Shown here: positions 35,738 to 60,280 of the stretch, in pieces
Layout of the letters: each line of letters starts with the position of its first letter
Numbering within the stretch: the stretch's first letter is position 1
Assembly (NCBI GenBank): GCA_023230525.1
Contig: JALNXE010000001.1
Location: 39,488 to 103,487, forward strand
Origin: Desulfobulbaceae bacterium
Lineage (GTDB): Bacteria; Desulfobacterota; Desulfobulbia; Desulfobulbales; SURF-16
Direction: 5' to 3'
DNA length: 64,000 nucleotides
Made by a program: the position numbers and the translations under genes
Notes under the pieces: model-generated
The model's input: the letters and a program-made list of their open reading frames with translations, nothing else
Told to the model about the DNA's origin: nothing
Database searches by the model: none

Positions 35738-35855
35738 TTTTGTTAGTTTCGGCTTTAAAAAGTCTTGGACGTTCATGCGGGAATACCTCTCCAGGGCGTA
35801 TACAACGAAATGGGATCAATTGCCGGTGGTGAAGGCTTCGTTTCCGCGGAGTTGA
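35738..35855 (+). pseudogene. umuC 3'-terminal remnant (last ~38 codons only)
   Basis: …GFKKSWTFMREYLSRAYTTKWDQLPVVKASFP aligns with the UmuC C-terminus GYKKSWTFRREYLSQAYTTRWDQLPVVKASFP (8031-8140, opposite strand). The nucleotide identity is high over ~100 bp and nothing upstream is UmuC-like. Confidence 0.75.
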
Positions 35856-35916
35856 TTCGATGTTTCTTGAAAAGGCAAGGGGGTAGAACTCTTGTGTGGA
35901 ATAAAACAGCAGCTGG

Positions 35917-36114
35917 CCAGGTTGCCGACAATTAAGGTTTTGATTGCAAAAATCCATTCCTAGGTTGGCCCATGTCGCGCAATTTGCAATCAGTTTTCCC
36001 GACACCGAGGACAGCGCCGGGCAGATCCGGGGGCAGTTCACCGGGTCGGTGATTGCAAAAGTCTCCGCTATTTTGTTTCAAATTCTGGGGCGTATCGGAG
36101 ATATTTTGACTTCC
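35917..36114. repeat. Structured ~200-bp repeat R1 (partner R2 at 49242-49453, direct orientation)
   Basis: Shared blocks in the same order: CCAGGTTGC, TGATTGCA, TTTGCAATCAG, CAGCGCCGG-CAGATC, GATTGCA, CCGCTATTTTGTTTCAAAT. The 10-mer TGATTGCAAA occurs at 35941 and 36050, and both copies are complementary to 35983-35992. Confidence 0.75.
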
Positions 36115-36327
36115 AATGAATAGTAGCAAGACTAACCTTGGACTTGTTGCTCTTATGATAATCTTCGATTTGGCAATCTTAGGGGCTGAACATGAAAATC
36201 ACCGGTTTACCCGGTGCATTTTCTGGTTGGAAATAAGTTCCACGTCCCCAGAATTCCGATAGAAGGATGGGATACGGCATTCTTTTCGAATATGGCTGAC
36301 TTCACTCCTCCTATAAATTTAATCACC

Positions 36328-37458
36328 TTAATCAAGATGTCCTCTAAGTTCCAGAACCTGCAAAAGCTGTTCTCGGATTTCCTTTGCCGTCGCTGCAAGA
36401 TCAACGGTGGCAAATCGAATCTCATGGTTCTGGATCTCAACGGCCTCGTTAACCATATCGCCCACTGAGGGGTGAAGGAGCAGTCCCGAGGCGCTCTCCG
36501 CGAGCGAGTCGCCGTTGCCTTCCTGGGACCTCAAGTAAGCGTAAATCTGATAGATATATCCACTTCGCAGTGTTTCTTCCCGATACCAGCCACGTGTTAC
36601 CACGGAGTTGAACTTGGTGTCTATGACGATGCGGCGTCCCGCGTCTGAATGGTTAAGGATGATGTCGGTTCTCATGGAGGGGAGGATTTTATCGATGCCC
36701 GGACTCTTGTTTTCAACCAGCCAGCCAATCGTTTTGCCAGCGTCAACACGCCATCCTTTCCTGGAAAGTACGACATCGTAAAATCCCGCAAGACCTTTCT
36801 CGTAAAGCTTCCTAACCCAGGCAATTTCTCTGTCAGGTAACGATAGATTTTTCGCGCCTGCGGATTCCGTAGGCAAGGCAAGGTTGAAGGCCAGCTGCGC
36901 CACAGAAACCATTGGCTGATCATTTGCATCGTGTCTGCCGAAGCGGTCGATGGCCCCATCGCCACGCCTTGGCCGCTCCCCGGTTACGCCAATACGCCTT
37001 AAGCTTGCCGCCAACGATCTGCATCGATGAACCAGTCCATCACGGTCGACTATTTTGGAAATTTTCTCTAGCGCTGCTCGGATATAACGGTTTCGGGCAG
37101 TATCGACAGTCAATTCGTTGAAGCGGCAAGCTACCTTCCCTCGATCAAGTAGTCGGTGTGTTTCGGTGTTCAGCAAGTCAATGCGCCCGCGCACACGACC
37201 AAGAACTGCTTCCCGGGATTGGTACCCATAACTCAAGTTCCGTTGAATGCGGCGCTCGACCTGATAACAGAGCATTTCTGCGACCAGATCCGGAATGTCA
37301 TCGGGGTTATCCTCTACGGCTACGTTTTTATTTTCGAGAACCCGGAAGAGATCCGATGCATACAGCATTAGCAGCCAAAGGTTGCGCACCGGGATGCGGC
37401 CAATACGACCAATCCCTTCATGGGCGTCTGACATCAAGTTGGCAGCAGCAATGGCCAT
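36328..37458 (-). CDS. mcrC: McrC (nuclease subunit of McrBC-type modification-dependent restriction system)
   Basis: 376 aa. The C-terminal PD-(D/E)xK-like RRIVIDTKFN…IYQIYAYL motif is present, and the gene lies 2 nt downstream of mcrB. Confidence 0.85.
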   Translation of the reverse strand: MAIAAANLMSDAHEGIGRIGRIPVRNLWLLMLYASDLFRVLENKNVAVEDNPDDIPDLVAEMLCYQVERRIQRNLSYGYQSREAVLGRVRGRIDLLNTETHRLLDRGKVACRFNELTVDTARNRYIRAALEKISKIVDRDGLVHRCRSLAASLRRIGVTGERPRRGDGAIDRFGRHDANDQPMVSVAQLAFNLALPTESAGAKNLSLPDREIAWVRKLYEKGLAGFYDVVLSRKGWRVDAGKTIGWLVENKSPGIDKILPSMRTDIILNHSDAGRRIVIDTKFNSVVTRGWYREETLRSGYIYQIYAYLRSQEGNGDSLAESASGLLLHPSVGDMVNEAVEIQNHEIRFATVDLAATAKEIREQLLQVLELRGHLD

Positions 37459-37460
37459 AA

Positions 37461-40049
37461 TCAGAATCCTTCAAGCAGGAGCTTCCTGGCCTTCTGAGAT
37501 TTTTCAAGCGTATCGAACCAGTATTCATCGAGCAACGGCCCGATCTCGGTGTCAACGACCTGGCGGAACCATTCCCGAGCATCACTAATCGGAACATCGA
37601 ACGGAGGCGTGACATAGCTGTGCCCCACTCGGAACTGAGGCCCGAGACCGGTATCAGCTGAGATGTCGTTGTTCAGAGCATTGAGACGCTTCTCAATCTC
37701 AACGAGGATTTCTGAATCAATGCCGCACTGGGATTGAACCCAGTCGTGCCAAGGCTTACCAAGGATGGGCTCCAGATCGATGAAGGCAAAACGGCGACGC
37801 AGCGCAAAATCGACCAGCGCAAGAGAGCGGTCTGCAATATTCATCGTGCCGATGACGTATAGATTGTCCGGAATAAAAACTCGCTCATCATCCGAACGTT
37901 TGTAGGAAAGCTCCAATGCTTCATTCGGCGTTCGCTTATCCACCTCGAGCAGCGTCAACATCTCGCCGAAAATCTGTGCGGGGTTTCCGCGGTTGATTTC
38001 TTCAATGACGACGACGTGCCTTGACATGGGATCTTTCGCGGCTGCCTTCATCATCTCCACAAAAGGTCCATCTACCAGTGTAAGCTTTCCGTCGCCAACC
38101 GGTCGCCAACCACGAATAAAGTCCTCATAAGAAAGGTTCGGGTGAAACTGAACCGCTCGGACCTTGCTGTCATCGCGTTGCCCTATCAACGCAAATGCCA
38201 ATCTTTTGGCCAGCCAGGTCTTTCCAGTTCCTGGCGGCCCCTGGAGGATCAGGTTTTTCTTGGTCCGAAGACACTTGAGAATCTTTTCGAGTTTTTCTCG
38301 GACGATAAAACAACCATCTGTTAAAATGTTATCTATTGAATACGGAACTATTGGTCGAGACCCATCCAAGATAGAAGTTGAGGTCGAAAAAAAATCAGTA
38401 AAATGCTTGTAGTTATTCAACTCTGATTGAGACTGATTTAACAATTCCAGTCCTTTTTTGGAAATCTGTACGAACCCTCTCCTGGGGAAATCAACCAATT
38501 CAGCCTTCTTTAGGTAAGACTTTGCCCAAGCTGCACGATTATCAAATAATGGCTGGCCTGTAGATTCGAGGGTGATGACATCATATTTTTCCAGCCCCAT
38601 TTCAGACTTAAGTTTCTGGTACACTTCTCTCGCAAGTTGCTCCCGCCCATCACTTAACAGTCTCAAAAGTGGGATCATTAATAAGTCAAATTTTGGGAGT
38701 AACTTTTTTAAATCGGCATCAACTTCATCTGGGGCAACCTCTTCTTCAAACACTTCGTCATCCTGCGCATCTGGGTCTGTCGCATTCGGATGGGCAGATG
38801 TCCCGCTGTCTTTAAAAAGCCAAGCCGCGAGGGAAAGTTCCGGAAAGGAGTGGACTGGATAAGCGTCCTCTTGAAAGCGAGCTTCGAGGGTATCCAGCAC
38901 CACCAGATAATCACTCGCATTGCAACGCCCCTTTGGGCCGTTCATGCCTATCTGGATATTGAGTTTTTTGCCGATGTAACGCTGGGACTGGCCATCAAGC
39001 GTCGGGAAATTCCAAGGGCGAATCCAGTAGAGCCCCATGGTAAGGTTCCATCCGACACCCCAGCGCAGCGTCGCGTTGTCGTAGGCAGCGACAAATGCCG
39101 ACCGTGCATTAGCATCATCCGATTCCGCAAAAGCAATCGCCTGGGCGAAGGCTTCCCAGAGTGTGTCAATGTCATCTTGTTGTCGTTTGTAGCTGTAGCC
39201 AAAAAACCATGTCCTCTGATTGTTGAGAACAGGAATTCCTTCAAAGGATTCGGGAACAGTCTCTGACACACCAAGCAGGCTTGCCAGTTCGCTCGCTATG
39301 GTTTTGCGATTGGCATCAGTAATCCCCCGGTTGAATATGCCCATGACCGTAAATGGGCAGATGTCTTTCAGAGGACCTCCCGGCACGCTTTCTTGGTATT
39401 GGTCATTGAGAATAGACATGCAATCGACTTTTTTGGCGATAGCGTGAATTCGGGAAATCAGCTCGTCACGCCGGTTTCTAAAAGTGAGAAGCTTGTCGGC
39501 CACCGCCTCATAAAACCGGGTCCAGTGGAAGCGGCGTTTGTCGACGGCGCTATCGCCGAAACGCTCCCGCCAATAGGGAGCGTTTCGGAATCGGTTGATG
39601 TCCTGCGCCTTTTCCTCGAACGTAAATCCGATGAGGGCGTCTGTGGTCCAGTCCCCTGGCAAGACGCGCCAGATCGTGCTTCGATTGGTATAGAAGTACC
39701 ACTCACGTGGCGGATCGAAGGGTTTCCAGTCAACCTTTAAGGTACGGCCATCTCCGAGGTTCTCTTTTACCGTGCCAATGGCTTTGATCGCCATGACTGA
39801 AACGGTCTGGCCACGGTTATCAAAGGGCAGATCGTGTTTCCGCGTATAGGACGATTTGATTGAAATACGGTCCCCAACCTGGATGGACTTGACCGCATCG
39901 AGGTATTTGCCTTGATAACCATTCTCCCAAATGCCTTGCTGCAGAAAACGGGGTGTTTGATCATTAGTTCCACCGTATGAGGACCCGACAAACCAGCAGG
40001 CTCGGGCTCCGGCCCCTTCAGGTTTAGAAGTCATAATCTGTTCTCCCAT
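37461..40049 (-). CDS. mcrB: McrB-family AAA+ GTPase with a long (~560 aa) N-terminal extension including an Mrr_N-type winged helix
   Basis: LILQGPPGTGKTW, VVVIEEINRGN, GTMNIADRSLALVDFALRRRF are the McrB GTPase motifs. The segment LLMIPLLRLLSDGREQLAREVY…NRAAWAKSYLKKAELVDFPRRGFVQISKKGLELL resembles the Mrr N-terminal wHTH. The first ~130 aa look like a PUA/EVE-like barrel, which is inference. Confidence 0.88.
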   Translation of the reverse strand: MGEQIMTSKPEGAGARACWFVGSSYGGTNDQTPRFLQQGIWENGYQGKYLDAVKSIQVGDRISIKSSYTRKHDLPFDNRGQTVSVMAIKAIGTVKENLGDGRTLKVDWKPFDPPREWYFYTNRSTIWRVLPGDWTTDALIGFTFEEKAQDINRFRNAPYWRERFGDSAVDKRRFHWTRFYEAVADKLLTFRNRRDELISRIHAIAKKVDCMSILNDQYQESVPGGPLKDICPFTVMGIFNRGITDANRKTIASELASLLGVSETVPESFEGIPVLNNQRTWFFGYSYKRQQDDIDTLWEAFAQAIAFAESDDANARSAFVAAYDNATLRWGVGWNLTMGLYWIRPWNFPTLDGQSQRYIGKKLNIQIGMNGPKGRCNASDYLVVLDTLEARFQEDAYPVHSFPELSLAAWLFKDSGTSAHPNATDPDAQDDEVFEEEVAPDEVDADLKKLLPKFDLLMIPLLRLLSDGREQLAREVYQKLKSEMGLEKYDVITLESTGQPLFDNRAAWAKSYLKKAELVDFPRRGFVQISKKGLELLNQSQSELNNYKHFTDFFSTSTSILDGSRPIVPYSIDNILTDGCFIVREKLEKILKCLRTKKNLILQGPPGTGKTWLAKRLAFALIGQRDDSKVRAVQFHPNLSYEDFIRGWRPVGDGKLTLVDGPFVEMMKAAAKDPMSRHVVVIEEINRGNPAQIFGEMLTLLEVDKRTPNEALELSYKRSDDERVFIPDNLYVIGTMNIADRSLALVDFALRRRFAFIDLEPILGKPWHDWVQSQCGIDSEILVEIEKRLNALNNDISADTGLGPQFRVGHSYVTPPFDVPISDAREWFRQVVDTEIGPLLDEYWFDTLEKSQKARKLLLEGF

Positions 40050-40121
40050 AATGAGACATGTCTGGAGTGCATTCCTTGAATTGCAAAATGCTTTAGTACT
40101 TTCGAGAACATGTGCAAAAAA

Positions 40122-41756
40122 CTATCTAATCGAGACGCACTCATCACCAACGCGTTGGTATCCGCTGTCACAAACCCATTTATGGCCGGTGTAATCGACA
40201 CTTGCGTTCGGGGGGACATAAAATTTCACACACTTATCACCTTCCGGGCGATAGCCACTGTCACAGACCCACTTGCGACCGGTGTAGTCAACACTAGCGT
40301 TTACAGGAACTTTGAATTTCACGCATTCGTTCTCCACCTGCCGATAACCGCTGTCACAAACCCATTTACGGCCGGTGTAATCGACGCTTGCGTTCGGGGG
40401 GACATAAAATTTCACACACTTATCACCTTCCGGGCGATAGCCACTGTCACAAACCCACTTGCGACCAGTGTAGTCAACACTAGCGTTTACAGGAACTTTG
40501 AATTTCACGCATTCGTTCTCCGCCTGCCGATAACCGCTGTCACAAACCCATTTACGGCCGGTGTAATCGACGCTTGCGTTCGGGGGGACATAAAATTTCA
40601 CACACTTATCACCTTCCGGGCGATAGCCACTGTCGCAAACCCAGTTTCGCCCTGTGTAATCAATGTGCGCGTTCGCAGGGATTCCACTCGACCTTCTTGT
40701 TTCCTGCACTGGCCTCGATTCAACTCTCGGAGGAGTCAGGCTAGATCGATGTTGCGGATTTGTCTGGCTTTGAGTTTTAGTTTGGGAAACGGGCGGTTTA
40801 TAAGCGGCTTTTGCTCTTCTAAGCGTACTCAATAAGTCTTCGCCAATCCAGCCATCCTGGGTGATGCCAGCGTCGCGCTGAAAAGCCTTCACCGCGTCGG
40901 CAGTCCGGCGACCATAATCGCCATCCACCGGTCCAGGGTCGTAGCCGAGATCGGTTAGGAGCTGTTGAGCTTCTTTGGTGTATTGGGAGCGGGGCTTCTT
41001 GGGAGCGCTACTCTTCGATACGCCTGGGGATACCGCTGGGTAGGAGCGGCTGCCCAACTGTCTGGCCTCTCGAATGGCCTCCGCGACGATTTGGGTTCGG
41101 TAGGATTCAACATCTCGTTCAGCTAGCGATCGGGAACCTTGGCGATGCTGATACCGCCCACAGCGGCTGTTGTAATCATTAACGATCCGGTTGAATTCAT
41201 CGACACCTTCATTTGTATCAATAATGTCTCTCATCGCCTCGATACGAATGCCTTCCCGGACGCACCAGCGAATCTCCGGCACGGAAAGCACATTGTTGGT
41301 ACCGACCGAAGGCTTTGTATATTGCAGTCCGACGCTTTGGGTCGCGCTTGGCGCTTGGACTGCCGGAGCGGGGCTGCTCTGCGGGTAGCTGTAGCTCTGA
41401 GACGACGATGGCGGATTGTATGAAGGTGTTTTGTTGCTTTGACTTCCATTGTTAATCAGCCAGATCACAAAAACAACCCCAATAATGCCAAGAATCCATT
41501 TACCCCCCGAGCCACTGCTGCTTTTGCCAGAGTTCACGGTTTCGATGGGTGGAGGAGAGTTTGTGGTTTTCTGCTCGGGTTCGGACGTGGCTGGTTCCCG
41601 TTGAGTCTGGAGCGGTTGCTTCGGGGTCGGGGGCTTAGCCTCCGCTTTTGGTTCGAGCTTTAAAGGCTCGTCGATGCCACTGAGCTCGGACGCCAAGTCT
41701 GAAAGCCCGGAGAATCCTTTTTTATCCTTATCGTTATCACCAGCCATGGGCATCAA
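40122..41756 (-). CDS. Membrane-anchored protein with peptidoglycan-binding domain (PG_binding_1-like) and six C-terminal Cys repeats
   Basis: It has an N-terminal cytoplasmic KKGFSGLSDLASELS motif and one TM (WILGIIGVVFVIWLI). These are followed by QQLLTDLGYDPGPVDGDYGRRTADAVKAFQRDAGITQDGWIG (PGBD-like) and then 6 x ~31-aa repeats NASVDYTGRKWVCDSGYR…C(V)KF. Confidence 0.7.
   Translation of the reverse strand: MMPMAGDNDKDKKGFSGLSDLASELSGIDEPLKLEPKAEAKPPTPKQPLQTQREPATSEPEQKTTNSPPPIETVNSGKSSSGSGGKWILGIIGVVFVIWLINNGSQSNKTPSYNPPSSSQSYSYPQSSPAPAVQAPSATQSVGLQYTKPSVGTNNVLSVPEIRWCVREGIRIEAMRDIIDTNEGVDEFNRIVNDYNSRCGRYQHRQGSRSLAERDVESYRTQIVAEAIREARQLGSRSYPAVSPGVSKSSAPKKPRSQYTKEAQQLLTDLGYDPGPVDGDYGRRTADAVKAFQRDAGITQDGWIGEDLLSTLRRAKAAYKPPVSQTKTQSQTNPQHRSSLTPPRVESRPVQETRRSSGIPANAHIDYTGRNWVCDSGYRPEGDKCVKFYVPPNASVDYTGRKWVCDSGYRQAENECVKFKVPVNASVDYTGRKWVCDSGYRPEGDKCVKFYVPPNASVDYTGRKWVCDSGYRQVENECVKFKVPVNASVDYTGRKWVCDSGYRPEGDKCVKFYVPPNASVDYTGHKWVCDSGYQRVGDECVSIR
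40125..40673. repeat. In-frame tandem coding repeat, 93-nt unit in a 186-nt super-unit (six copies)
   Basis: Successive 186-bp units are nearly identical at the nucleotide level, with only a few substitutions (e.g. cagaccc/caaaccc, ctccacctg/ctccgcctg). Confidence 0.9.
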
Positions 41757-41932
41757 CCCCTTCCGTTTCGCACATAAATTTCATGCCGAGCTTCCTCATA
41801 TGAACGTCAACCCCCAAGCGCCCAGGCCGCCAATGCCCATACAAAAAATAATCACCGGAGTATATCCAGAGCTTTTCTTCTTGGCGGGCAGCCCTGTATC
41901 CGGATGCCCGTGAGCCTGCCCCAGATCGCCGA

Positions 41933-42397
41933 TCATCTTGGCTGGCCGCTTACTCCCAACTGCCGACCCAAGATCTCGAACAACCTCCGCTTGACCACCT
42001 GTGGGCTTGTGTCGCCTTCATATTCACCGAGGTTCAATCGTGTCTCGCCGGTGAAGAGGCCAATCATCAGCGGCCCCATTTTGCTGCCACCCTCGGCTTG
42101 AAGGAGCTTGCCAGCTTCGCTGCCGAGCATTTTGGCCAGCATTCCAATATCGGCCTGCTCAAGGGGAAGAGTCATAATCGGCCGGTGGGATGGACCGTAA
42201 GGATTTCTGTCGATACGGTAAAAAACCGACATGGCGTAGTGGTAGGTCATCCCCTGATACTCGGCCTTCTTACCCTGAATTTCCATGGTGAAGTCAAGAA
42301 CGGTCTTCGGTTTCTTCTGGAAGTGAGGAAGAAATCTCCCCAGACCCAGGTCTCTCCGGCATGGACGCTCGACCATGGAGCAGGAAGAGTTGGTCAC
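41933..42397 (-). CDS. Hypothetical 154-aa protein (GTG start, 4-nt overlap with the upstream 49-aa ORF)
   Basis: The ORF is in operon context; no domain recognised. The start is GTG at 42397, overlapping the TGA of the small ORF (GTGA). Confidence 0.4.
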   Translation of the reverse strand: MTNSSCSMVERPCRRDLGLGRFLPHFQKKPKTVLDFTMEIQGKKAEYQGMTYHYAMSVFYRIDRNPYGPSHRPIMTLPLEQADIGMLAKMLGSEAGKLLQAEGGSKMGPLMIGLFTGETRLNLGEYEGDTSPQVVKRRLFEILGRQLGVSGQPR

Positions 42398-42543
42398 TTG
42401 GTCAGCTCCAGCAAGGCGAACAGCGGCTTTTGAGGTGCTGATGGGTGTAAGCTGGTTTGGCGTTGTGCCTGTGGGATAATCCGGGTGTCCGAGGTCAGAT
42501 CGGAGAGTCCAGAAAATCCGCGTTTGTTGTCTTTTTTATCCAT
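42394..42543 (-). CDS. 49-aa peptide MDKKDNKRGFSGLSDLTSDTRIIPQAQRQTSLHPSAPQKPLFALLELTK (below the ORF-track cutoff)
   Basis: Found by hand translation. A GAAGGGGA Shine-Dalgarno sits 6-7 nt upstream of the ATG at 42543. It shares the K(K/R)GFSGLSDL(A/T)S motif with the N-terminus of the 544-aa protein and is translationally coupled to the next gene. Confidence 0.4.
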   Translation of the reverse strand: MDKKDNKRGFSGLSDLTSDTRIIPQAQRQTSLHPSAPQKPLFALLELTK

Positions 42544-42583
42544 ATATCCCCTTCAAAATCCGCTATTACAGATTGCTCCTTGG

Positions 42584-44530
42584 CTACGAATCCCACCTCA
42601 ATGAGAAATGTTCATCTAATAAATGAAAAATCACATCCGTGTCGATTACGGTGCTGAATTGTGGAATCTTCGTAAGGGATACTTCTCGCTTTATTTTGTC
42701 GAGAATCCCAAAATCTTTCTTTCTCATCTCAACGTAGCCATACCCACGCAAAAATGAAGTTGATGACAGTCCGAAGTCACGCCCTTTGAACACGATTTTG
42801 TCACGCGGATAGAAGTAGCACTTATCATATTCGAAATAGCCATTTCTTTTTATTTGCGACTCATAAAACTCGACCCGGCGATCAAATGTAACATGAGATA
42901 AATATGAGTAGAACTCGACGACCGTCTTGATTTGTGCTGATTTGTCTTTGTTGAAGAAAAAGCCTTGCTCATCTACAGAGATCTTGACCTCTTGGCCTCC
43001 AGACATCGTAAGATAAATATTGGCCTGCTCAGTTTTTCCCGTTTCGATGAAGTTGGTCTTATGGGTTGTGACTGCTCGATAGAATCCAATATGACGAATA
43101 TCGTTGGTGCTATACGTCCTCCCCTTAAATGAAAATGTGTTGCCGTTTAGATTAAATTCTCTGAATTGAGAAAGGAGCTTGCTTCGGTTTGCGGCTATTT
43201 CTTGAAGGGCCTTGTCATCATTGGTAATGCGATCAGAAATTTCACCTGCATCCTCAAATACCCCAAGAAGAGCCTTTGTAAGCTGCTGAGCAAAATCGAG
43301 CTTGTCATGCTTGTTGAACATATGAATCGCCAAATCTCGAACGGTCCAAGCAGCGTGTTGGCTCGCATCATGCTCGGGATCAATTTCCCAATTCTTGACG
43401 AGCTGACAAAGCTGGTTAACTTTTTGCGATAAATATGAATCTGGCCGCCTACTATCTAAGTCAGCTTTTATCTGGGTAATGAATTCCTCGATTTTCGATA
43501 CTTCTGAATGAAGAACCCTTTGTTCCGCTATCTCGCCGAGCGCATCTGCATCCTCAGCGGTGCGTTCGGCAACCTTACCAACTTCCGCGAACACTTCCTG
43601 CAGCATGTTCGTGAGTTGTTGTGAGAAATCGAGCTTGTTATGCTTGTTGAACATATGAATCGCCAGGCCACGAACCAGACCTGCAACGCGGTCGCTCGCG
43701 TCGTGATCGAGCCCTCGACTCTTTGTGCTGACCTGAATCGGCTGGGCGACGGAATCCCAATTCTTAACAACCTGGATTAGCTGGTTCACCAGGGGGGCCA
43801 ATGTGGAATCGGGCCGTTCCGCATCCACGGCGGCCCGCAGTTTTTCCACGAGGGCTCTTATGTTCCCTTCTTCCTTGTCAAGGAACCCCTGTGCCTCTAC
43901 CTCATACGAATCAACAAGGTCGGCTATCAGAATAGGGCCGTGTTCCTCGCCATCGTCAGTCGCGGATTCGACGGCAACGGTAACTGCCTCCACGAGTTCT
44001 TTTGGGGAGAGGTTGTCAAGGGCCGACTTGATAACCTGGCGATAGTGTCTCCTCCGTTCTTGGATTTCAGCTTCTACGGCCGAGAGATCCGACACTTCCG
44101 GAAAACCGGAAACAACCCGTTCCTCGTTAATGATCGCGCTCAGCTCCTCGGGGTCGATATCTTCAAACGCCCAGGCGATCTCAAGAATCCATTCCGCAAC
44201 GTCATTGGCAATGTGATCAGGCAAACGAGCAAGGCCTGCCGCAAGCAGGTTCGCCCGAGCAATTGACGACAGTTTGTCGACAGCGAGCAAATCCGCTGGC
44301 GAGGTCTCGAGGAGCGACAACACCTCTCCGGCTCGTTTAGGTCCAATACCGGGCAGCCAAGCTACTTCAGCGGAGAGCCTTTTCCGGGGGTTGGTCAAAT
44401 CGGAACGCGCCTCTATGCAATCACTTGAGTCGAGCAGCAAGCTACGTTCGTCGGCCAATTCCATGATTCGCCGTCGGTTATCGCGGGGGCTGGCAGTCAG
44501 AATATGAAAAGGATTTTGTAATAGGTCCAT
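42584..44530 (-). CDS. 648-aa protein with a degenerate J-domain-like N-terminus, an internally duplicated helical module and a beta-rich C-terminal domain
   Basis: NPFHILTASPRDNRRRIMELADERSLL…NPRKRLSAEVAWL has J-domain helix I-II spacing but no HPD. An internal repeat is present (…VKNW…RGLAIHMFNKHNKLDFSQQLT… / …VKNW…RDLAIHMFNKHDKLDFAQQLT…). It lies between the AAA+ gene and the small ORF. Confidence 0.45.
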   Translation of the reverse strand: MDLLQNPFHILTASPRDNRRRIMELADERSLLLDSSDCIEARSDLTNPRKRLSAEVAWLPGIGPKRAGEVLSLLETSPADLLAVDKLSSIARANLLAAGLARLPDHIANDVAEWILEIAWAFEDIDPEELSAIINEERVVSGFPEVSDLSAVEAEIQERRRHYRQVIKSALDNLSPKELVEAVTVAVESATDDGEEHGPILIADLVDSYEVEAQGFLDKEEGNIRALVEKLRAAVDAERPDSTLAPLVNQLIQVVKNWDSVAQPIQVSTKSRGLDHDASDRVAGLVRGLAIHMFNKHNKLDFSQQLTNMLQEVFAEVGKVAERTAEDADALGEIAEQRVLHSEVSKIEEFITQIKADLDSRRPDSYLSQKVNQLCQLVKNWEIDPEHDASQHAAWTVRDLAIHMFNKHDKLDFAQQLTKALLGVFEDAGEISDRITNDDKALQEIAANRSKLLSQFREFNLNGNTFSFKGRTYSTNDIRHIGFYRAVTTHKTNFIETGKTEQANIYLTMSGGQEVKISVDEQGFFFNKDKSAQIKTVVEFYSYLSHVTFDRRVEFYESQIKRNGYFEYDKCYFYPRDKIVFKGRDFGLSSTSFLRGYGYVEMRKKDFGILDKIKREVSLTKIPQFSTVIDTDVIFHLLDEHFSLRWDS

Positions 44531-44542
44531 GCTCCCCTCCGG

Positions 44543-46012
44543 TTACTTGTCATCCCGGACGAATCCTATACGTCTGCTTTTTTTCTCTTGGTCTTTTGGA
44601 AGGCTGTTCAACGCTGCATCAATGCTCTCTTGATCGAGCTCTGTCTTACTGGCCTTGGCAGCGAGCCGTGCGGCCTCGCGTATGACAAAGGCCGAATCGG
44701 AGAGCGCCTTACCCGTGAGCGCATTGAGGATCTTGTCCACGTTAAGATCGTCTGCTTTCGGCAGCTTGCTCAAGAGTGAGTCCACCAGCGAAGCCACTTC
44801 TTCCCTCGACGGCATGCCAACCTCGATGATGTGGTCAAAACGGCCGCGCCGCAGAATCGCCGGATCGATCATTTCGATCAGGTTCGTCATGGCGATAATC
44901 AGCACCTTGTTCTTGATGGCTTCCGGAATCCGACGAAGAAACTCGGCTACCTCTTCGACGTGATGCAATCCGGACGAGCTCCCAGAGCGTCTATCCGACA
45001 GAAAAGATTCCATCTCGTCGATGACGATGACGGACGGAGCGCCATCAATCGCCTTGTCAAAAACCTCGGAGATCTTCTTGCTGGTTTCGTGAATGTAGGG
45101 GCTGCCGACACTGTTCGAATCAATCGAGTAGCTTGGCCAATCGATAAACTCGACAAGACGCTCCACAGCAAAGGTTTTGCCACAACCTGGCGGCCCATGC
45201 AGGACGATGGCGGAAGGAAAATCGATACCCAAGACTTGATATTTCTCGGCATTGAAGATGATGTCGATGACGTGTTCGTTGAAAAACTCCTCAAGCTGTG
45301 GTCGCCCTGGAAGTGTGAACACCTTGGCCTCGGCCGGTTCCTCGGATGATTGCGGCTGTTCAGGTTCGAAAGCCTCCTTAGCAATGGTGGTCTTTGCCTC
45401 GGTCTTGGGTTGAGAAGACGGCTTGCATTTAGCCAGTAGACCAGCATTTGCAGGCAAGGTAAATCCGGCAGCCTTTATAATTTCTGCCAGATCGCCAGCG
45501 GGCATCCAGCCAGTGAGTTTAGTCAAGCGCCGGAAGGATTCCGTTGATATGACGACCCCACCGGTGATCCAGGTTCCCAAGACAACCTCATCATCTACGT
45601 GAGGTGTCAGCGTCCAGGCCGGGAGCAGTCTGGAGTACTGTTCCACATAAACGGCATCGTGGAAGGAGGCATCCTCGGATAGTTTGCGAGACTCTTTGAG
45701 AGCGAAAGCAAAGGCCAGTGCATCGACCTTGCTTTCAGGGGATTTCCCATTTTCAACCGGAGTCAGGGTGTACTTTTTATGGCTGCTCAGACTCTGGAGT
45801 GCTTCAGCTCCGAACGAAACATCCCCGAACACGGATTCGTCAAGAAAACCGCATTCATTCCACTTCCTCGCCAGCTCCGGCAGTGTGAGCAGGATATTAT
45901 TTGAACCATTGGTATCGAAAATCTGCCACTCATCTCCTGAATAGAGAAGCGACCGGATTTTCGACCCGTCTGGCAATTCATACCCTTTAGGCAGCCATAA
46001 ATCCTTCGCCAT
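44543..46012 (-). CDS. Classic-clade AAA+ ATPase (Cdc48/FtsH-like single AAA module) with an unknown ~250-aa N-domain
   Basis: Walker A LHGPPGCGKT, Walker B SVIVIDEME and second region of homology TNLIEMIDPAILRRGRFD. Confidence 0.88.
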   Translation of the reverse strand: MAKDLWLPKGYELPDGSKIRSLLYSGDEWQIFDTNGSNNILLTLPELARKWNECGFLDESVFGDVSFGAEALQSLSSHKKYTLTPVENGKSPESKVDALAFAFALKESRKLSEDASFHDAVYVEQYSRLLPAWTLTPHVDDEVVLGTWITGGVVISTESFRRLTKLTGWMPAGDLAEIIKAAGFTLPANAGLLAKCKPSSQPKTEAKTTIAKEAFEPEQPQSSEEPAEAKVFTLPGRPQLEEFFNEHVIDIIFNAEKYQVLGIDFPSAIVLHGPPGCGKTFAVERLVEFIDWPSYSIDSNSVGSPYIHETSKKISEVFDKAIDGAPSVIVIDEMESFLSDRRSGSSSGLHHVEEVAEFLRRIPEAIKNKVLIIAMTNLIEMIDPAILRRGRFDHIIEVGMPSREEVASLVDSLLSKLPKADDLNVDKILNALTGKALSDSAFVIREAARLAAKASKTELDQESIDAALNSLPKDQEKKSRRIGFVRDDK

Positions 46013-46015
46013 AAA

Positions 46016-48511
46016 TCATCCCCTGATAATGTTGGCAACATCCATCAAATCATTTTCAGATCCTCTTCCAATCTTGATTGAATAGAGTTCACCAACAACA
46101 GCACGAAGCTTTTCAATATCATCAGTACGCATAAATTGCGCACCGAGCTTGGTAAGTTCCTGGAAACGGTGTTTGTCGGCAAAGAGATGAGGCGAGCTGG
46201 CCATCCACTTGAACCGATCGACCACAAACCAATCCTGCCGCCAGAGAATCTCCCAGTTCTTTCCTTTCAACTCATCAAGGTAGTGTTCGAAATTCTGGTT
46301 CGTTTCTCCAATACAACGTTGCGCCGTCTTCGCCAAGTTGTCGAAGGCCGACGATTCGGACGGGCGGGCATGCTGCCGAATATGTTCGTCGAAGAAGGTC
46401 ACCACACCATCGAGGTCAATCTGGCGAATCTCCTTGAGGTGTTCCTTTCGAACCTGGGCAAGAAGTCGCCGTGCCTCGAGCACCTTCTCCATGGCCTCCT
46501 GGGACTTCTCGGTCTCTTTTTCTTCTGGATCGAGCGAGACGGCGGATTCAAGTTTCTGCCGTGCTTGCTCCAGTTTTGGGTTGTCCACTACCTCATTGAT
46601 CTCATCGATGCGATTCAGCGTTCTTTCGCCTTCCTCGACGACCATGACGGCGGCGGCGGTGTAGTCGAGCTGTCCCTCCTGACGGGAATAGAAGTTCTTC
46701 CCTGAGTGGAAGGTCCCGCCGATGCAGGGCACGGATACTTCGATGATAATATTACCGGAGTCCAGGATTTCGTATTCGCATTCAAGATCGGCTCCGGCGT
46801 GAATCACGCCATCATCGAAATCGGAGCCGGAAATTTTCAAGACGCCGATGGGGCGGTTGTCGGTAATGGGGTCTTCGATCTCACCCTCCCAAAGTTTCAG
46901 ATTGAGTGAGCCAGACGCGCCCGCTTTGAGAGACTCAGCCGCCTTAAATATCTTTTTGCCCTTCTTCGGCAGTGAATCGCCCGAACGGATCAGATAGTCA
47001 AGTACGGGGCGGCCGCCGAGTTTCTCCAAGACCTCGATGCCAACTGAGTGAGAGGCCGGGATGGCATCCACTGTGGCGGCGGTTCGGGTAATGACAATCT
47101 TGTCCTGTTCCAGGGCAATGGGGCCACCCACGGAATCGAACATAAACACCTTGAAGGTGTTGTCGCCAGTTTTTGTCAGGGTAACGTCGATGGTTGCGCC
47201 ATGCTTGAGAGGAAGGCGGCCGGAGGTCCAGCCGGTGTCGACGCTATCGATCTGAAACTCAGAGCCAACCGCAGCTTGGCCTGCCAATTGGACGGCGATC
47301 TTTGCTTTAACATCCGGTGTGCGGGCGATGTAATTGAAAGACAGCGCCAGCCCGCCTCCGGAAGAAATTTGCCCACGGGTATTCTTGCGCGACCGGTTCT
47401 GGGAACTCCAGTCAATGGATTCCGCGAAGAGGCTTGCGCCTTCCGCCACGGCCGTCATGGGATTTACATCGGTGCTTCCCGGAATACCCAGCTCAAAGGC
47501 GACCTTGTCGCGCAGGGGTTTGTAATTGGTCGGGCCACCGACGAACACAATACGTTCCAGGTCATGCGGAGAAAGACCGGCCTTATTGAGTGTCTCTCGA
47601 GCAGACTCGATTGATTCGCCTACGCGCTCGGAGATCAGCTTGTCATAGGTGGCTCGCTGCAAAGGAATATCGAGATAGATTTCATTGCCGCTAAGATCCC
47701 GAACGCGGGCCTCGGTTTCCGATAGGCTGATTACGGAATCTTCACGGGCCGAGAGTTCAATCTTAGCGCGCTCGGTGGCCCAAGCGGACAGCCGAATGAG
47801 CGACTTGAAACTCGGATTCACGGAAAAGTCTTCAGGGAGGTCGAAGTTTTCCAGCAGCCAAGGTCGCACAACGTTATCGACGAGGACGCGGTCAAAATCC
47901 CTGCCGCCACACATGGCAATACCACCGTGGGCGAGGAGGTTGACCCGCCCACCAATGCTTTCGGCAATGGCGATATCGAGTGTGCCGCCACCTAGGTCAT
48001 AGATCAGAAACATGCCGTCGGTATTGCGGGCACGCATGACGCTCATGACCGCCGCGACCGGTTCCTGCATAAGCGCAATCTTGCCGAGACCAGCCATGCT
48101 GGCGGCCTGCATGGTGGCGTCCTTCTGCATCTGGTTAAACGCCGCAGGAACGGTTATGACGGTTCCTGTATCGGGATCGTTTCTGATTTCCTCTGGTAAG
48201 TAGCCGAACAGAACCTTTAGAACCTCTGCGGAGCATTCTTCGGGGGTCTTTGTGAGGTTCATCGCAGAAAGCTGAACTGGCGTGCTCGTCCCCATGAGCC
48301 GCTTGAACAGCATCGCCGCGTTATCTGGGCTGTGCGGAGCCGAATCGTAGGCCCGCTTGCCCACGTATTTGTTGCCGCGTCGGTCGATATAGATCACCGA
48401 TGGCGTCACATCATTCTGTTCAGGACTCTTCCAGGTTCGGGTTTCGGAACCGTCATAGGAACAGATAGCGCTGTTAGTTGTACCCAGGTCAATGCCTATG
48501 AAATTTTTCAT
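46016..48511 (-). CDS. Non-canonical Hsp70-family ATPase (831 aa, extended C-terminus)
   Basis: Hsp70 NBD motifs IGIDLGTTNSA, TVPAAFN, IYDLGGGTLDIA, VFVGGPTNYKPLR. The beta-rich substrate-binding-like region is followed by a ~230-aa helical tail that is longer than in DnaK. Confidence 0.9.
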   Translation of the reverse strand: MKNFIGIDLGTTNSAICSYDGSETRTWKSPEQNDVTPSVIYIDRRGNKYVGKRAYDSAPHSPDNAAMLFKRLMGTSTPVQLSAMNLTKTPEECSAEVLKVLFGYLPEEIRNDPDTGTVITVPAAFNQMQKDATMQAASMAGLGKIALMQEPVAAVMSVMRARNTDGMFLIYDLGGGTLDIAIAESIGGRVNLLAHGGIAMCGGRDFDRVLVDNVVRPWLLENFDLPEDFSVNPSFKSLIRLSAWATERAKIELSAREDSVISLSETEARVRDLSGNEIYLDIPLQRATYDKLISERVGESIESARETLNKAGLSPHDLERIVFVGGPTNYKPLRDKVAFELGIPGSTDVNPMTAVAEGASLFAESIDWSSQNRSRKNTRGQISSGGGLALSFNYIARTPDVKAKIAVQLAGQAAVGSEFQIDSVDTGWTSGRLPLKHGATIDVTLTKTGDNTFKVFMFDSVGGPIALEQDKIVITRTAATVDAIPASHSVGIEVLEKLGGRPVLDYLIRSGDSLPKKGKKIFKAAESLKAGASGSLNLKLWEGEIEDPITDNRPIGVLKISGSDFDDGVIHAGADLECEYEILDSGNIIIEVSVPCIGGTFHSGKNFYSRQEGQLDYTAAAVMVVEEGERTLNRIDEINEVVDNPKLEQARQKLESAVSLDPEEKETEKSQEAMEKVLEARRLLAQVRKEHLKEIRQIDLDGVVTFFDEHIRQHARPSESSAFDNLAKTAQRCIGETNQNFEHYLDELKGKNWEILWRQDWFVVDRFKWMASSPHLFADKHRFQELTKLGAQFMRTDDIEKLRAVVGELYSIKIGRGSENDLMDVANIIRG

Positions 48512-48513
48512 AG

Positions 48514-48888
48514 TTACAGCTTCCTCAAAGTGACGGTTCCTGTCTTAACCAAACCTTCTTTCCCCATAATGATCGGCTCCAGCATCTGATCGACTATCAA
48601 GGCATCTTTCGCATCGAACTCTTCGATATTCAGGGGGGTAGCGGCCATGCCGGGGTCGAAGGGATGCCCCTCGACGTTGACGATTCGCAAACCCGTTTGT
48701 TCCAGAGCCTCTTCGACCTTTTTTATGAACCAACGAAACTGGCTCTTGTACCGGTTCTGTTCTCCGGCATCGAGTTTTAGCAGCAGGCGATCAAACACCC
48801 GGCCAAAACGCCAGGACTCAACCGCCATACTGATCACCGCATCCCGCATAGCCTCGGGGTGAGTTATGGTTTGCTCGGAATCCAACAT
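48514..48888 (-). CDS. GrpE-like nucleotide-exchange factor (C-terminal domain only, 124 aa)
   Basis: ALEQTGLRIVNVEGHPFDPGMAATPLNIEE…IVDQMLEPIIMGKEGLVKTGTVTLRK parallels the GrpE beta-domain pattern (G-x-FDP-x-H/M-x-A … RpA-V-V-V). It ends 2 nt before the Hsp70 start. Confidence 0.65.
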   Translation of the reverse strand: MLDSEQTITHPEAMRDAVISMAVESWRFGRVFDRLLLKLDAGEQNRYKSQFRWFIKKVEEALEQTGLRIVNVEGHPFDPGMAATPLNIEEFDAKDALIVDQMLEPIIMGKEGLVKTGTVTLRKL

Positions 48889-49241
48889 ATTTTTCTCCGT
48901 GTCCTTAAAGAATTCTCAAGTAGTACCGCCGAATATAATCGAACGCGTTGTCGAATAGATCCTGAACTTTGAAGTGAAAAAGAGGTAATATTCAGATATC
49001 TTTTCTGGTTAATTTGGCATTGAATATGTTCAAATCCTTGGAGCAACATATTTACAAATCGTGATCACTATTCTATTCGGTACAATAATTTGCAAGGGAA
49101 ATATGGCATGTTGTCATCTTTGGGTTGGTGCTCAGTATAATTGAGATGTGTCATGGCAAGGAAAATGCCTGACATGAATACAGCAAGTAAACATTCTTCC
49201 TGAGAGGGTGAGATATGAATGTACATGCAATCACCAGCCAA

Positions 49242-49453
49242 CCAGGTTGCTGGCAATTGAATTTTTGATTGCATTTTGATCGCTGCAGCTGCTCCGGACA
49301 AAGCGATTTTGCAATCAGATTCCCCGGTATCGAGGGCAGCGCCGGTCAGATCGGCGGCCAGCTCCCCAGGGCGGGGATTGCATTTTCTTTTTTGGAGTCC
49401 GCTATTTTGTTTCAAATTTGGGGGGAGTATATTAGGGAGATAGTGTGACTTCT
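49242..49453. repeat. Structured ~200-bp repeat R2 (partner R1 at 35917-36114)
   Basis: Same ordered blocks as R1. TGATTGCA (49266) and GATTGCA (49376) are both complementary to TGCAATC(A) at 49310-49317. Confidence 0.75.
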
Positions 49454-49570
49454 ATCGCTGGGGCAAGTCCACTTTTTTTTAAGTCTGACACATTCACGCC
49501 TTTCTTGTAAAGTGAGCGGCTTCTTCATGGGATTCATTCGAATACTTACATCTTTTTGTTGTTAGAAAAA

Positions 49571-50437: not shown

Positions 50438-50444
50438 AAACGGC

Positions 50445-50795
50445 TCATTTCTTTTTTGACTTAAAAAAATCGACCATTTTTTCAATCGTTTCTTTGTCTT
50501 CAGAATTCAATGATTGGAATCCCCGGAAAAAAGTTCTGATATCTTGATCATGTAATAAAGCGCCTAACTCAGACTCATCTGTTTTACCCAACAGATAATC
50601 AATGGATACATTTAAAACAGATGCGATTCTCTGCAGGACCGGTATCGTTGGTGTTCTTGTCCCTTTCTCGATTTGCGAAATAGCCGCCGGGGTTACACCA
50701 GATTTTCCCGCGAGCTGGGCCTGGTTAAGGTTCTTCCCTTCTCGGGCAAGAGTGATACGCTGCCGCAATATCTCCTTATTAAATTCTTTCATCAT
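50445..50795 (-). CDS. capH: XRE-family HTH repressor, CapH-like
   Basis: LNQAQLAGKSGVTPAAISQIEKGTRTPT is a Cro/CI HTH. 116 aa, upstream of the metallopeptidase and divergent from the CD-NTase operon. Confidence 0.75.
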   Translation of the reverse strand: MMKEFNKEILRQRITLAREGKNLNQAQLAGKSGVTPAAISQIEKGTRTPTIPVLQRIASVLNVSIDYLLGKTDESELGALLHDQDIRTFFRGFQSLNSEDKETIEKMVDFFKSKKK

Positions 50796-50844
50796 AGAAA
50801 AGCACCTCCAGTAAATGTTTAGTCAGCTTGATACTACAAGAAAA

Positions 50845-50940: not shown

Positions 50941-50960
50941 AAACAGAAAGGAGTTACTAC

Positions 50961-58624: not shown

Positions 58625-58651
58625 GCGACTGCCCTCAAAGAGTTCTGCCGA

Positions 58652-60267: not shown

Positions 60268-60280
60268 AGTGTCACTCCTA

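Follow-up and report, generated by a model that had tools for sequence, protein, structure and literature searches.

The window analysed here, a 64,000-nucleotide stretch of a Desulfobulbaceae contig, contains a 13.3-kb Hsp70...McrBC block bracketed by two direct repeats, R1 and R2. The bracketed genes are a small ORF, Hsp70, an IetA-like AAA protein, two unknowns, a PG-binding repeat protein, an Mrr_N-AAA_5 (McrB-like) protein and McrC. None of these is a recombinase, as a sequence-only reading of this DNA had already observed for the interval, and no recombinase gene, attI site or intI remnant was found anywhere within the window. The same reading had placed a umuC remnant immediately before R1. 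The remnant is indeed there, with 87.5% amino acid identity to the intact UmuC encoded at 8028-9344, and the same junction between the umuC end and block A recurs in another contig (L035). On the other side, R2 lies 354 nt from the start of the first gene (48888), matching the earlier estimate of ~350 nt.

R1 and R2 proved to be two copies of one element, in the same orientation and with the same block order, as had been proposed (mean column identity 76%, self-BLAST E = 2e-15). The window holds no other copies. The longest exact match between the two was at most 21-27 nt. The matching copies cover 35891-36132 (R1) and 49217-49447 (R2), and on both the conserved unit is bigger than the limits given in the sequence-only reading (Table 1). 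The two copies differ in type. R1-type copies have a small hairpin TCACC/GGTGA, lack the T-run and contain the G block, whereas in R2-type copies the small hairpin is TCCCC/GGGGA and is followed by a T-run. The outer extension of R1 was kept in L004, L028, L066, L114 and L124, with similarity ending after CTGAAC.

Table 1. Features of the bracketed locus, in window coordinates.
Feature	Position	Strand	Evidence or remarks
umuC 3' remnant abutting R1	35746..35846	+	100 bp
R1 core, R1-type	35891..36132	+	nhmmer E = 9.8e-62, alignments
R1 box 3, TGATTGCA	35941..35948	+	motif scan; degenerate partner box 2 at 35927-35933 (alignment)
R1 box 4 (TGCAATCA on + strand)	35985..35992	-	homologous box is the crossover region in L004/L112
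R1 box 5, TGATTGCA	36050..36057	+	motif scan
R1 right module: block E TCCGCTATTTTGTTTCAAATT, F GGAGATAT, G TTGACTTCCAATGAATAGTAG	36064..36126	+	
R1 outer extension	36133..36191	+	conserved module; sixth GCAATC box at 36172-36178; ends ...GGGGCTGAAC
attC-like hairpin, 3' end of McrBC operon	36185..36232	-	constrained DNA fold, -11.0 kcal/mol
Bracketed cargo	36328..48888	-	
Module L, conserved, A/T-rich, non-coding	49043..49204	+	between R2 and Hsp70 operon
R2, R2-type	49193..49447 (right limit about 49423-49447)	+	nhmmer E = 6.2e-71
R2 box 1, ATGCAATCA	49225..49233	+	motif scan, alignment
AGCCAAC-CAG-GTTGCTG, AAC-N3-GTT inverted boxes	49236..49252	+	read from sequence
R2 boxes 2+3, GCAATT-N8-GATTGC inverted pair	49253..49273	+	
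R2 box 4 (TGCAATCA on + strand)	49310..49317	-	motif scan
Small hairpin TCCCCAGGGCGGGGA, box 5 (GATTGCA, 49376-49382) and T-run	49363..49397	+	terminator-like
R2 block E	49398..49418	+	21-nt exact match with R1

Conserved modules, grouped around five to six GCAATC boxes in inverted pairs, make up the mosaic element; its core of ~230 bp extends up to ~400 bp with accessory modules. In all copies, as determined by alignment, the boxes read [T/G]GCAATC or GATTGC[A/C]. The motifs TGCAATCA/TGATTGCA were found at every site claimed for them (R1, 35941-48, 35985-92 and 36050-57; R2, 49266-73, 49310-17 and 49376-82). The earlier inventory had missed box 1 of R2, a fourth box in that copy, the degenerate pair GCAATY-N8-GATTGC and the sixth box of R1 (36172-78). 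The box motif was not enriched in the window outside R1 and R2, and other regulatory regions there were without it. The modules vary in their association. The right module of R1 (E/F/G) was found standing alone at other loci, and module L adjoined element copies in variable order (L040/L042/L113, L047, L066 and L065). A short form in L025a arose by deletion between two direct GATTGCATTTT repeats. The AAC-N3-GTT boxes at 49236-49252, which resemble an integron 'simple site', occur in R2-type copies only and are not conserved in type B. The terminator-like structure at 49363-49397 lies on the + strand, antisense to the genes, and is present in 24/30 copies.

Family copies were gathered from two independent pattern scans, and 30 distinct copies formed the alignment and covariation set. 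With nhmmer, ~50 full or partial copies were identified on ~35 MAG or metagenome contigs, both plasmid-like and chromosomal, from sulfate-reducer-type or Desulfobacterota-type plasmids and chromosomes. The sequence-only reading had envisaged an element that flanks different cargo in related replicons, and each of the ~50 occurrences was indeed a boundary between unrelated cargo. The cargo was defence-rich and differed from copy to copy (Thoeris, Pycsar, BREX-like, HigBA, ParDE). Chromosomal contexts included ychF, LysR, a citrate transporter and a sulfatase, with no transfer genes there. A BLAST search of R1 against a plasmid collection gave no match. A scan of viral contigs gave a single match, inside a phage gene, which was judged to be chance. 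The element has a marked polarity: neighbouring genes were opposite to it in strand in 32/37 cases on the left and 26/30 on the right. Upstream genes were co-oriented in 26/30 cases, and for most of them 0-100 nt separated the stop codon from the edge of the element; the gap from the element to the next start codon ranged from -18 to 536 nt. The GCAATC-box element is a previously undescribed family, one-directional and non-coding. An ORF across R2 (49068-49415, minus) was rejected as a protein, given single-nucleotide indels in the core and a frame broken in several copies. A short leader peptide from the conserved TTGACTT was likewise rejected, as 'MT' alone is conserved while lengths and sequences differ.

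The element has sharp edges. Copies 94-99% identical to it (L085, L087, L114/L135, L065 and L042) have unrelated DNA on both sides, those with 97-99% identity being placed between wholly different genes. Their similarity edges fall at 49190-49197 and 49417-49432, and the left edge recurs within +/-4 bp in seven different contexts. A change of partner within the element was seen in the pair L004/L112, which is ~99% identical leftwards of box 4, ParDE genes included, and 76-88% identical rightwards, with unrelated genes beyond the right side. The identity switch lies at box 4, +/-15 nt. Truncated copies, in turn, have breakpoints at many different positions with no shared overlap region, and linkage within the element falls at all three long invariant stretches. 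The same pattern of scattered breakpoints and linkage decay would be expected from homologous or illegitimate recombination.

The suggestion that the repeats act as an attenuator, a pair of alternative cruciforms or a structured ncRNA found no support in covariation or in Rfam. The inner stem for which two compensatory double changes had been reported (columns 121-124 with 174-178) was paired in 75.6% of cells across the 30 copies. No covariation measure rose above shuffles, and 354/500 shuffles reached the observed percentage paired. Consensus folding and pair counting showed that the stems that do pair are sequence-invariant. Rfam returned no match, either at the gathering score on the window or in E-value mode on two loci. 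Single-strand folding exceeded shuffles only moderately, with no difference between the two strands (z about -2.7). Together, the invariance of the boxes, the stems that do not covary and the strand-equal folding fit protein-binding sites in double-stranded DNA.

Other identities were considered and set aside. Sigma-70 promoter scans in both orientations found none positionally conserved across copies; in the right module, a candidate promoter on the + strand was present in 4/27 copies and is not conserved. Module L and the G block show a 15/21 inverted match, as might a MITE or IS remnant, yet no copy has both. Block E matches the XerD arm of a dif/cer-like site at 8/11 positions, as read from the sequence, but the partner arm is absent. 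When the consensus of the element was inspected by eye for sigma-54, Xer/dif, parS, tRNA-like, Tn3/Tn7-end and JUMPStart/ops sites, none proved to fit.

An integron-type G|TT junction falls at the outer edge of R1. The hairpin at 36185-36232 (48 nt: TTCCAAC...central stem CACCGG/CCGGTG...GTTCAGC) is the single attC-like hairpin among the intergenic regions of the window, and 36185-36191 is the reverse complement of GTTCAGC. The conserved R1 sequence begins exactly at the final GTT of this hairpin. R1-type copies share the edge ...GCTGAAC| (G|TTCAGC on the complementary strand), and the attC-like hairpins before it are variable. As part of our best, still tentative, reading, an outer edge at G|TT after an attC-like hairpin may be the signature of an integron-integrase-type junction. 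The hairpin itself is weak (-11 kcal/mol) and scores as terminator-like too, and it could equally be the intrinsic terminator of the McrBC operon.

Integron components were also found beside the element elsewhere. In two separate integrons, L114/L135 and L072, element copies adjoin a degraded integron integrase (TIGR02249, E = 3e-46) with a conserved attI. In L135, a whole small integron (intI-attI-cassettes) lies between an R2-type and an R1-type copy, and the order of these, R2-type...R1-type, is the arrangement seen around the block in the window. That contig also has a tandem of two element copies that no gene separates. The element shares its arrays with canonical attC sites, and as the cassettes beside attI use these, the idea that the element is itself an attC was dropped. 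A strict scan for the RYYYAAC...GTTRRRY pair found none in the elements. The box 4-box 5 unit (~75 nt) has a bulge between an outer stem of 7 bp and a weak inner stem, and the whole element (230-400 bp) does not fold as one hairpin. An integron or CALIN would call for a neighbouring integrase or for two or more attC sites on one strand within 4 kb; the window contains neither an integrase nor an attI remnant, and just one attC-like hairpin. An integrase occurs on only 2 of ~35 element-bearing contigs, where the integron may simply be cargo. Other contigs with homologues of the integrase either end at it or are chromosomal, and none carries the element.

Several known systems share part of this organization. 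As in integrons and in CALIN, clusters of attC sites without an integrase (Cury et al. 2016, PMC4889954), modules in the same orientation alternate with a non-coding repeat that begins directly behind the stop codon. Defence and toxin-antitoxin genes again abound in the cargo, intI, attI and canonical attC occur in some of these arrays, and the edge of R1 falls at a G|TT junction. The sites themselves differ, attC measuring 57-141 bp with RYYYAAC/GTTRRRY and the element 230-400 bp with GCAATC/GATTGC. Since the element coexists with canonical attC and brackets a whole integron, it would be a higher-level boundary and not an attC. The modules it separates, operons of several genes that carry regulators of their own, reach 13 kb; known cassettes are far smaller, the biggest being ~2 kb, and IntegronFinder groups attC sites <4 kb apart (PMC4889954). 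The VCR/VXR repeats of Vibrio, long species-specific attC repeats of sedentary chromosomal integrons, are similar in that each cassette of a large array has highly similar repeats on its flanks (PMC13638679, PMC12614218), and VCR homology is reported to promote cassette shuffling in Vibrio chromosomal integrons (PMC12614218). VCRs, however, are true attC sites with AAC/GTT boxes and one long imperfect hairpin, while the element has local hairpins and lacks those boxes.

Outside integrons, the CUP repeats of the IncN pKM101/R46 leading region are bound by ArdK (Delver & Belogurov 1997, cited in PMC6289460), and a role as recombination hot spots has been suggested for them (PMC6289460). They resemble the element as direct repeats of a few hundred bp before successive operons, on a conjugative plasmid and near umuDC-like genes. 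In this comparison, made by description, CUP repeats differ in having a defined promoter and ArdK operator and in ending near the start codon; the element has no conserved promoter, its spacing varies or the gene is absent, and its copies are chromosomal too. Accretion or cis-mobilisable elements, whose tandem arrays are divided by full att sites, offer a further likeness, in that ~240-bp multi-box direct repeats part modules without a recombinase of their own and partial copies lie at array ends. For the element, no cognate integrase or core site was found, and its partial-copy breakpoints do not coincide at one overlap region.

Taken from the sequence comparisons, our preferred reading, which we put forward as possible and no firmer, is that the element is a protein-bound boundary or recombination module for the exchange of defence modules. 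The GCAATC boxes would serve as double-stranded DNA binding sites for a recombinase or an accessory protein, not as RNA stems. A module lying between two direct copies could then be looped out, or replaced by a module from another replicon. The 13.3-kb Hsp70...McrBC block of the window would be one such exchangeable module, its downstream end joined to R1 via the attC-like hairpin. We infer that the boxes are bound by protein, that modules are moved by recombination at the element rather than by ordinary homologous exchange, and that R1 x R2 recombination could excise the block. RecA-type exchange between R1 and R2, which have 76% identity and a longest exact match of 21 nt, would be inefficient. 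The sequence-only reading had raised both a recombination site and a boundary element; recurrence, variable cargo, the L004/L112 switch and the arrangement in L135 favour these options. A more specific version, which we think unlikely, is that the element is a composite recombination site one level above attC, with the boxes recognised by an integron-type or other tyrosine recombinase.

The polarity of the element relative to genes would also suit a portable regulatory leader, which seems rather unlikely to us. Here the element and module L would form a shared promoter/operator, and a plasmid- or island-encoded repressor on the GCAATC inverted repeats would switch all modules together, with module shuffling a by-product of copy identity. 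Such a leader would be analogous to the ArdK-bound CUP repeats upstream of IncN leading-region genes (PMC6289460) or to Reg576 operators. Boxes 2 and 3 make a typical palindromic operator (GCAATY-N8-GATTGC), a weak -35/-10 (TTGTCC-17-CAAAAT) occurs just upstream of this palindrome in 8 copies, the A/T-rich module L has promoter-like hexamers (TTGCAA-17-AATAGT), and R2 is 354 nt upstream of the Hsp70 operon. Neither orientation, however, has a promoter at a conserved position, and the distance to the start codon spans -18 to 536 nt. Several copies are without a co-oriented downstream gene; R1 faces the umuC remnant, and in L135 a convergent intI lies ahead of copy E#3 and E#1 comes straight after E#2. 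The HigBA module of L051 retains its own upstream region with no element, the box motif is nowhere else in the regulatory regions of the window, and no recurring candidate regulator was seen among the 119 neighbouring proteins scanned. The hairpin and T-run on the + strand, found in 24/30 copies, could alternatively end a small antisense RNA of ~130-170 nt after box 5, the element then being an ORF-less cassette that acts on its neighbours; we regard this as improbable. The box 2/3 stem tolerates G-T wobble on the + strand only, 6 copies carry a double change, C-G to A-T, in the small hairpin TC[C/A]CC...GG[G/T]GA, and the tandem copies of L135 without an intervening gene look cassette-like. 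Covariation was nonetheless not above shuffles, Rfam gave no match, a conserved + strand promoter was not found, and folding z-scores were the same on both strands. The double change, moreover, is possibly a single event, its six copies being one subfamily that is also without the T-run.

Passive homology arms would require no machinery of their own. The element would be a stretch conserved from the flank of an ancestral island or integron and since copied around, an analogue of the '3'-conserved-segment', and RecA-dependent or transformation-driven double crossovers between copies would swap the modules. This is an unlikely account in our judgement, and it is consistent with the heterogeneous breakpoints of truncated copies, the coincidence of linkage dips with the longest invariant stretches, the L025a short form and the lack of a consistently associated recombinase. 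There is precedent in the homology-driven cassette shuffling that PMC12614218 describes for chromosomal integrons. It leaves unexplained, however, five or six invariant boxes amid drifting sequence, the strict polarity towards genes, and similarity edges within +/-4 bp in unrelated contexts. Exact identity between R1 and R2 is also at most 21-27 nt. A Frpo/ssi-type single-strand promoter or priming signal of the leading region, expressing modules early in the recipient, scarcely merits belief and is already largely refuted. The geometry suits an F-like plasmid, since the tra genes (13-31 kb) share a strand with the modules and the element is on the would-be T-strand, and umuDC-flanked leading-region islands with repeated Frpo-like elements have been described (PMC11541004). 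Known Frpo/ssi sequences, though, form one long hairpin of -94 to -102 kcal/mol with z about -9 (-9.2: ColIb Frpo1, F ssiD), whereas the element reaches -33 kcal/mol (z about -2.7), whichever strand is folded. No -35/-10 hexamers are rebuilt in the stem, copies occur in chromosomal contexts without transfer genes, and the cargo is defence, not anti-defence.

Little has been established, to our knowledge, about how defence islands obtain and exchange entire multi-gene systems at fixed hotspots. Integrons account only for small, promoter-less, single-gene cassettes. The element offers a testable candidate junction for the exchange of larger modules, among them the 13-kb McrBC/Hsp70 block, which sits on a conjugative plasmid, BREX-like, Thoeris and Pycsar systems, toxin-antitoxin modules and a whole integron. 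The GCAATC boxes provide a sequence handle for arrays in anaerobe genomes that attC-based tools would miss. Should the element prove to be just a regulatory leader or passive homology, the finding would be ordinary, though the element would remain useful for marking a modular defence hotspot. If the composite-site reading were true, whole multi-gene defence systems and even complete small integrons could be excised as circles and re-inserted across replicons, conjugative plasmids included, amounting to a 'super-cassette' system for defence islands.

The two copies that bracket the 13-kb defence block, R1 and R2, were direct repeats with matching block order, as the sequence-only reading had described, with a mean column identity of 76% (MAFFT, 35850-36200 against 49175-49540). 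The pair was recovered at E = 2e-15 by self-BLAST of the window, in which pattern and profile searches found no third copy. The TGCAATCA/TGATTGCA motifs were confirmed where that reading had placed them. Its inventory of boxes (GCAATC/GATTGC motifs) was correct for those listed but incomplete, as three more were found. One, at 49225-33, lies upstream in R2; a degenerate one makes a tight inverted pair with box 3 (GCAATY-N8-GATTGC); and a sixth box is located right of R1 (36172-78). Also borne out were the positions of R1 after a umuC remnant, a 100-bp umuC 3' end at 35746-35846, and of R2 upstream of the first array gene, whose start codon (48888) is 354 nt away. This umuC copy is inverted and lies 26 kb from an intact umuD-umuC-SRAP operon (8028-10441, - strand). 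The same junction, umuC end, 70 nt and block A (a conserved stretch of the element), occurs in another contig, L035 (2047-2143), where a KfrA gene separates it from that locus's own umuC end.

The repeat does occur elsewhere, and there it flanks variable cargo. Two independent pattern scans, one for block E with each species represented by one genome and one for block A in metagenomes, followed by an nhmmer profile search, gathered some 50 copies, full or partial, with unrelated neighbours, from about 35 contigs. The sources were one Desulfobacteraceae MAG, two 'Proteobacteria' MAGs, and subsurface and sediment metagenomes. On many contigs there were two to four copies, directly oriented and spaced 170 bp to 12 kb apart. 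Neighbouring proteins differed from site to site and were rich in defence functions (Thoeris ThsA/ThsB, a Pycsar cyclase and effector, BrxL, ResIII and SNF2 helicases, YhcG nucleases, an S_4TM effector, HigBA, ParDE and PRiA4_ORF3); chromosomal copies lay beside ychF, a LysR regulator, a citrate transporter or a sulfatase. With the element read as '+', neighbours were on the '-' strand in 32 of 37 cases on the left and 26 of 30 on the right. The gene on the right mostly had its stop codon 0-100 nt from the element, in some cases overlapping it, and the distance to the next start codon ranged from -18 to 536 nt.

The core has a fixed order of parts (see table). A subset of copies, of R1 type, carries an accessory module of blocks F and G and the sixth box, ending ...GGGGCTGAAC. 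The A/T-rich module L (49043-49204) adjoins copies, on one side or the other, in five further locus groups. The right module (E-F-G) is also found by itself, as is the left part (boxes 1-4), and one short-form copy has a deletion between two direct GATTGCATTTT repeats. In contig L135 (2425-3039), tandem copies 166 bp apart hold just a fragment of module L, an 'empty' module. Two loci, L010 (3605-3660) and L040 (496-524), have an extra conserved stretch after block E (GTATATARCAGAYGRTCCYGAGC...GGTCT), unseen in other copies.

Features of the bracketed block, order of the element core and attC sites of associated integrons
Feature	Position	Strand or orientation	Detail
McrC	36328-37458	-	between R1 and R2
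Mrr_N/AAA_5 McrB-like protein	37461-40049	-	between R1 and R2
PG-binding repeat protein (PG_binding_1)	40122-41756	-	between R1 and R2
Two function-unassigned proteins		-	between R1 and R2
IetA-like AAA ATPase		-	between R1 and R2
Hsp70	46016-48511	-	between R1 and R2
Small ORF		-	between R1 and R2
Box 1	core 1	+	ATGCAATCA
Palindrome	core 2	+	GGTTGCCGGCAA
Boxes 2 and 3	core 3	+	GCAATY-N8-GATTGC
Spacer	core 4	+	~40 nt
Box 4	core 5	+	
GC-rich conserved centre	core 6	+	
Small hairpin	core 7	+	TC[C/A]CC...GG[G/T]GA
Box 5	core 8	+	
T-run	core 9	+	24/30 copies
Block E	core 10	+	CCGCTATTTTGTTTCAAATT
attC, L072	1761-1820		GGCCAAC...GTTATTC; fold -23.7 kcal/mol
attC, L114	2325-2380		ACCAAAC...GTTAGTC; fold -19.3 kcal/mol

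As had been noted, no recombinase is among the genes between R1 and R2, and tblastn with XerD and Hin gave no match in the window. Within the PG_binding_1 gene, six 93-bp tandem repeats (40135-40692, 70-100% identity) produced spurious EGF and zinc-finger Pfam matches. The Hsp70-family protein (831 aa), the IetA-like ATPase and the small ORF form an operon (44543-48888) directly upstream of the McrBC-like pair; because a PADLOC model matched the ATPase only, the three may constitute an undescribed defence system. To the right of R2, which abuts the capP 3' end, lies a capH/capP pair (PADLOC E = 1.6e-21 and 1.8e-51), part of a divergent type II CBASS operon (51357-55662); the complete system (49571-55662) comprises a CD-NTase, E1/E2, JAB, a SAVED effector and the divergent capH/capP regulators. 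DISARM-like genes follow at 55919-63717 (SNF2/PLD helicase, DUF1156 methylase, DUF3780 protein), with an AlbA_2/HATPase_c_4 gene inserted among them.

The replicon, which carries TraE/K/B/C/U/F/H/G, TrfA and iterons, is a conjugative plasmid of F type. About 12 iterons (GGTCATACGACAC) adjoin the gene for the TrfA initiator, midway through the transfer cluster, beside an IS1595-family transposase (21862-22249, 22235-23197, 20769-21731). A second pair of direct repeats (10734-11083 and 58616-58956; ~350 bp, 86% identity, 47.9 kb apart) encloses the whole T4SS, oriV and defence region, and may be a scar that a large rearrangement or insertion left behind. The left copy is flanked by the SRAP and HU genes; the right one overlaps the AlbA_2/HATPase_c_4 gene (58753-60369, - strand) at its 3' end, as well as the SNF2/PLD gene start. 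The type I R-M region (HsdS, D12 methylase, AAA_13, RhuM, HsdM) contains repeated segments (595-724, 1222-1351 and 3572-3701; 3526-3588 and 5848-5910), the first 60 nt of hsdM being duplicated upstream of the AAA_13 gene. These could reflect specificity-subunit shuffling or a duplication remnant.

Folding was analysed across 30 distinct full-length copies. The inner stem, in which compensatory changes had been proposed, paired in just 75.6% of cells, and the outer stems (boxes 2/3 and 4/5) were uninformative because their sequence is invariant. No measure gave covariation above column shuffles, 354 of 500 of which reached the observed percentage paired, and Rfam returned no match; the earlier suggestion of an attenuator, alternative cruciforms or a structured RNA was thus not upheld. 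RNAalifold predicted only local stems (boxes 2/3, 4/5 and inner), and DNA folding was modestly better than for shuffles, equally on both strands (z -2.7 and -2.8). An ORF overlapping R2 was rejected as protein-coding on account of single-nucleotide indels in the core. Invariant inverted boxes, drifting intervals and strand-symmetric folding have the look of putative protein-binding sites in duplex DNA.

Copies with 94-99% identity to R2 (L085, L087, L114/L135, L065, L042, L086, L124) had unrelated DNA on both sides, and their similarity edges recurred at 49190-49197 on the left and 49417-49432 on the right. Loci L004 and L112 share a near-identical ParDE module and left element part; identity falls to 76-88% exactly from box 4 rightwards, and the genes beyond are unrelated. 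Association between informative alignment columns shows dips at three places: box 2, the stretch after box 4, and box 5. These patterns show that recombination has occurred at the element and within it. They fit site-specific and homologous exchange alike, since truncated copies break at several points and the longest invariant stretches are where the dips fall.

Several copies lie beside integron parts. Contig L114 carries a split tyrosine recombinase whose C-terminal half matches integron-integrase model TIGR02249 (E = 3e-46, model positions 194-313 of 315); it is 49% identical, integron-specific insertion included, to IntI1. A second, N-terminal integrase fragment at the end of L072 is 67% identical to it. 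The two contigs share an attI-like region up to ...GACAATAACTTG|TT and diverge beyond. Adjacent cassettes end in canonical attC hairpins, with similar sites in L051/L062 and L041, which excludes the element as the attC of these integrons. L135, a longer contig with the same integron as L114, reads BrxL operon, E#3, intI, attI, PIN_12 cassette, attC, trypsin-like cassette, E#2, E#1 and further genes, E#1-E#3 being element copies. E#3, an R2-type copy, lies 72 nt from the stop codon of intI; E#2 is of R1 type. A whole small integron is thus bracketed by R2-type and R1-type direct copies, as R2 and R1 bracket the 13-kb block. The R1-type outer edge is the complement of G|TTCAGC, preceded in gene orientation by variable hairpins starting ...AAC. 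In the window this hairpin (TTCCAAC-...-GTTCAGC, 36185-36232, 48 nt, fold -11 kcal/mol) is the only one of its kind among intergenic regions. The edge looks like the distal end of an integron array, its last attC fused to what was once the right flank of attI, though the hairpin is weak and could equally well be a terminator. No attI or intI remnants were found in the window; other relatives of the integrase, at contig ends or among housekeeping genes, had no element nearby.

Our tentative preference is for a protein-bound boundary or recombination module. A putative protein would occupy the boxes, and the stretch between two direct copies would be a unit that can be looped out or replaced; the McrC end of the window unit may have been joined to R1 through an integron-integrase-type event. 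A portable promoter/operator leader, like the IncN CUP repeats, seems rather unlikely, as a conserved promoter was not found and some copies lack a downstream gene. Passive homology arms, a slightly less probable account, would leave the invariant boxes, the polarity and the recurrent sharp edges unexplained. Jointly, these two ordinary explanations amount to a real possibility, somewhat short of an even chance. It is improbable that the element encodes an antisense small RNA whose 3' end is the hairpin and T-run on the + strand. An Frpo-type single-strand promoter was initially suggested by the geometry of the plasmid and the nearby umuC (PMC11541004), but fold stability and the chromosomal copies refute this reading, to which we give almost no credence.

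Accretion arrays of integrative elements are among the nearest known systems, together with CUP repeats (PMC6289460), CALIN and integron cassette arrays (PMC4889954), and the long attC repeats, VCR for example, that are specific to a species (PMC12614218, PMC13638679). The element resembles these in its polar, repeat-delimited, defence-rich array logic and physically co-occurs with integron parts. It lacks the defining attC boxes, appears to depart from attC in length and in the single-hairpin fold as well, and sits one level higher, delimiting multi-gene operons and even an integron; judged on these features, it is therefore placed outside the attC family. For specialists, the unexpected points would be a second, larger-scale boundary repeat within integron-associated defence arrays, and a 13-kb defence 'cassette' carried by a conjugative plasmid.
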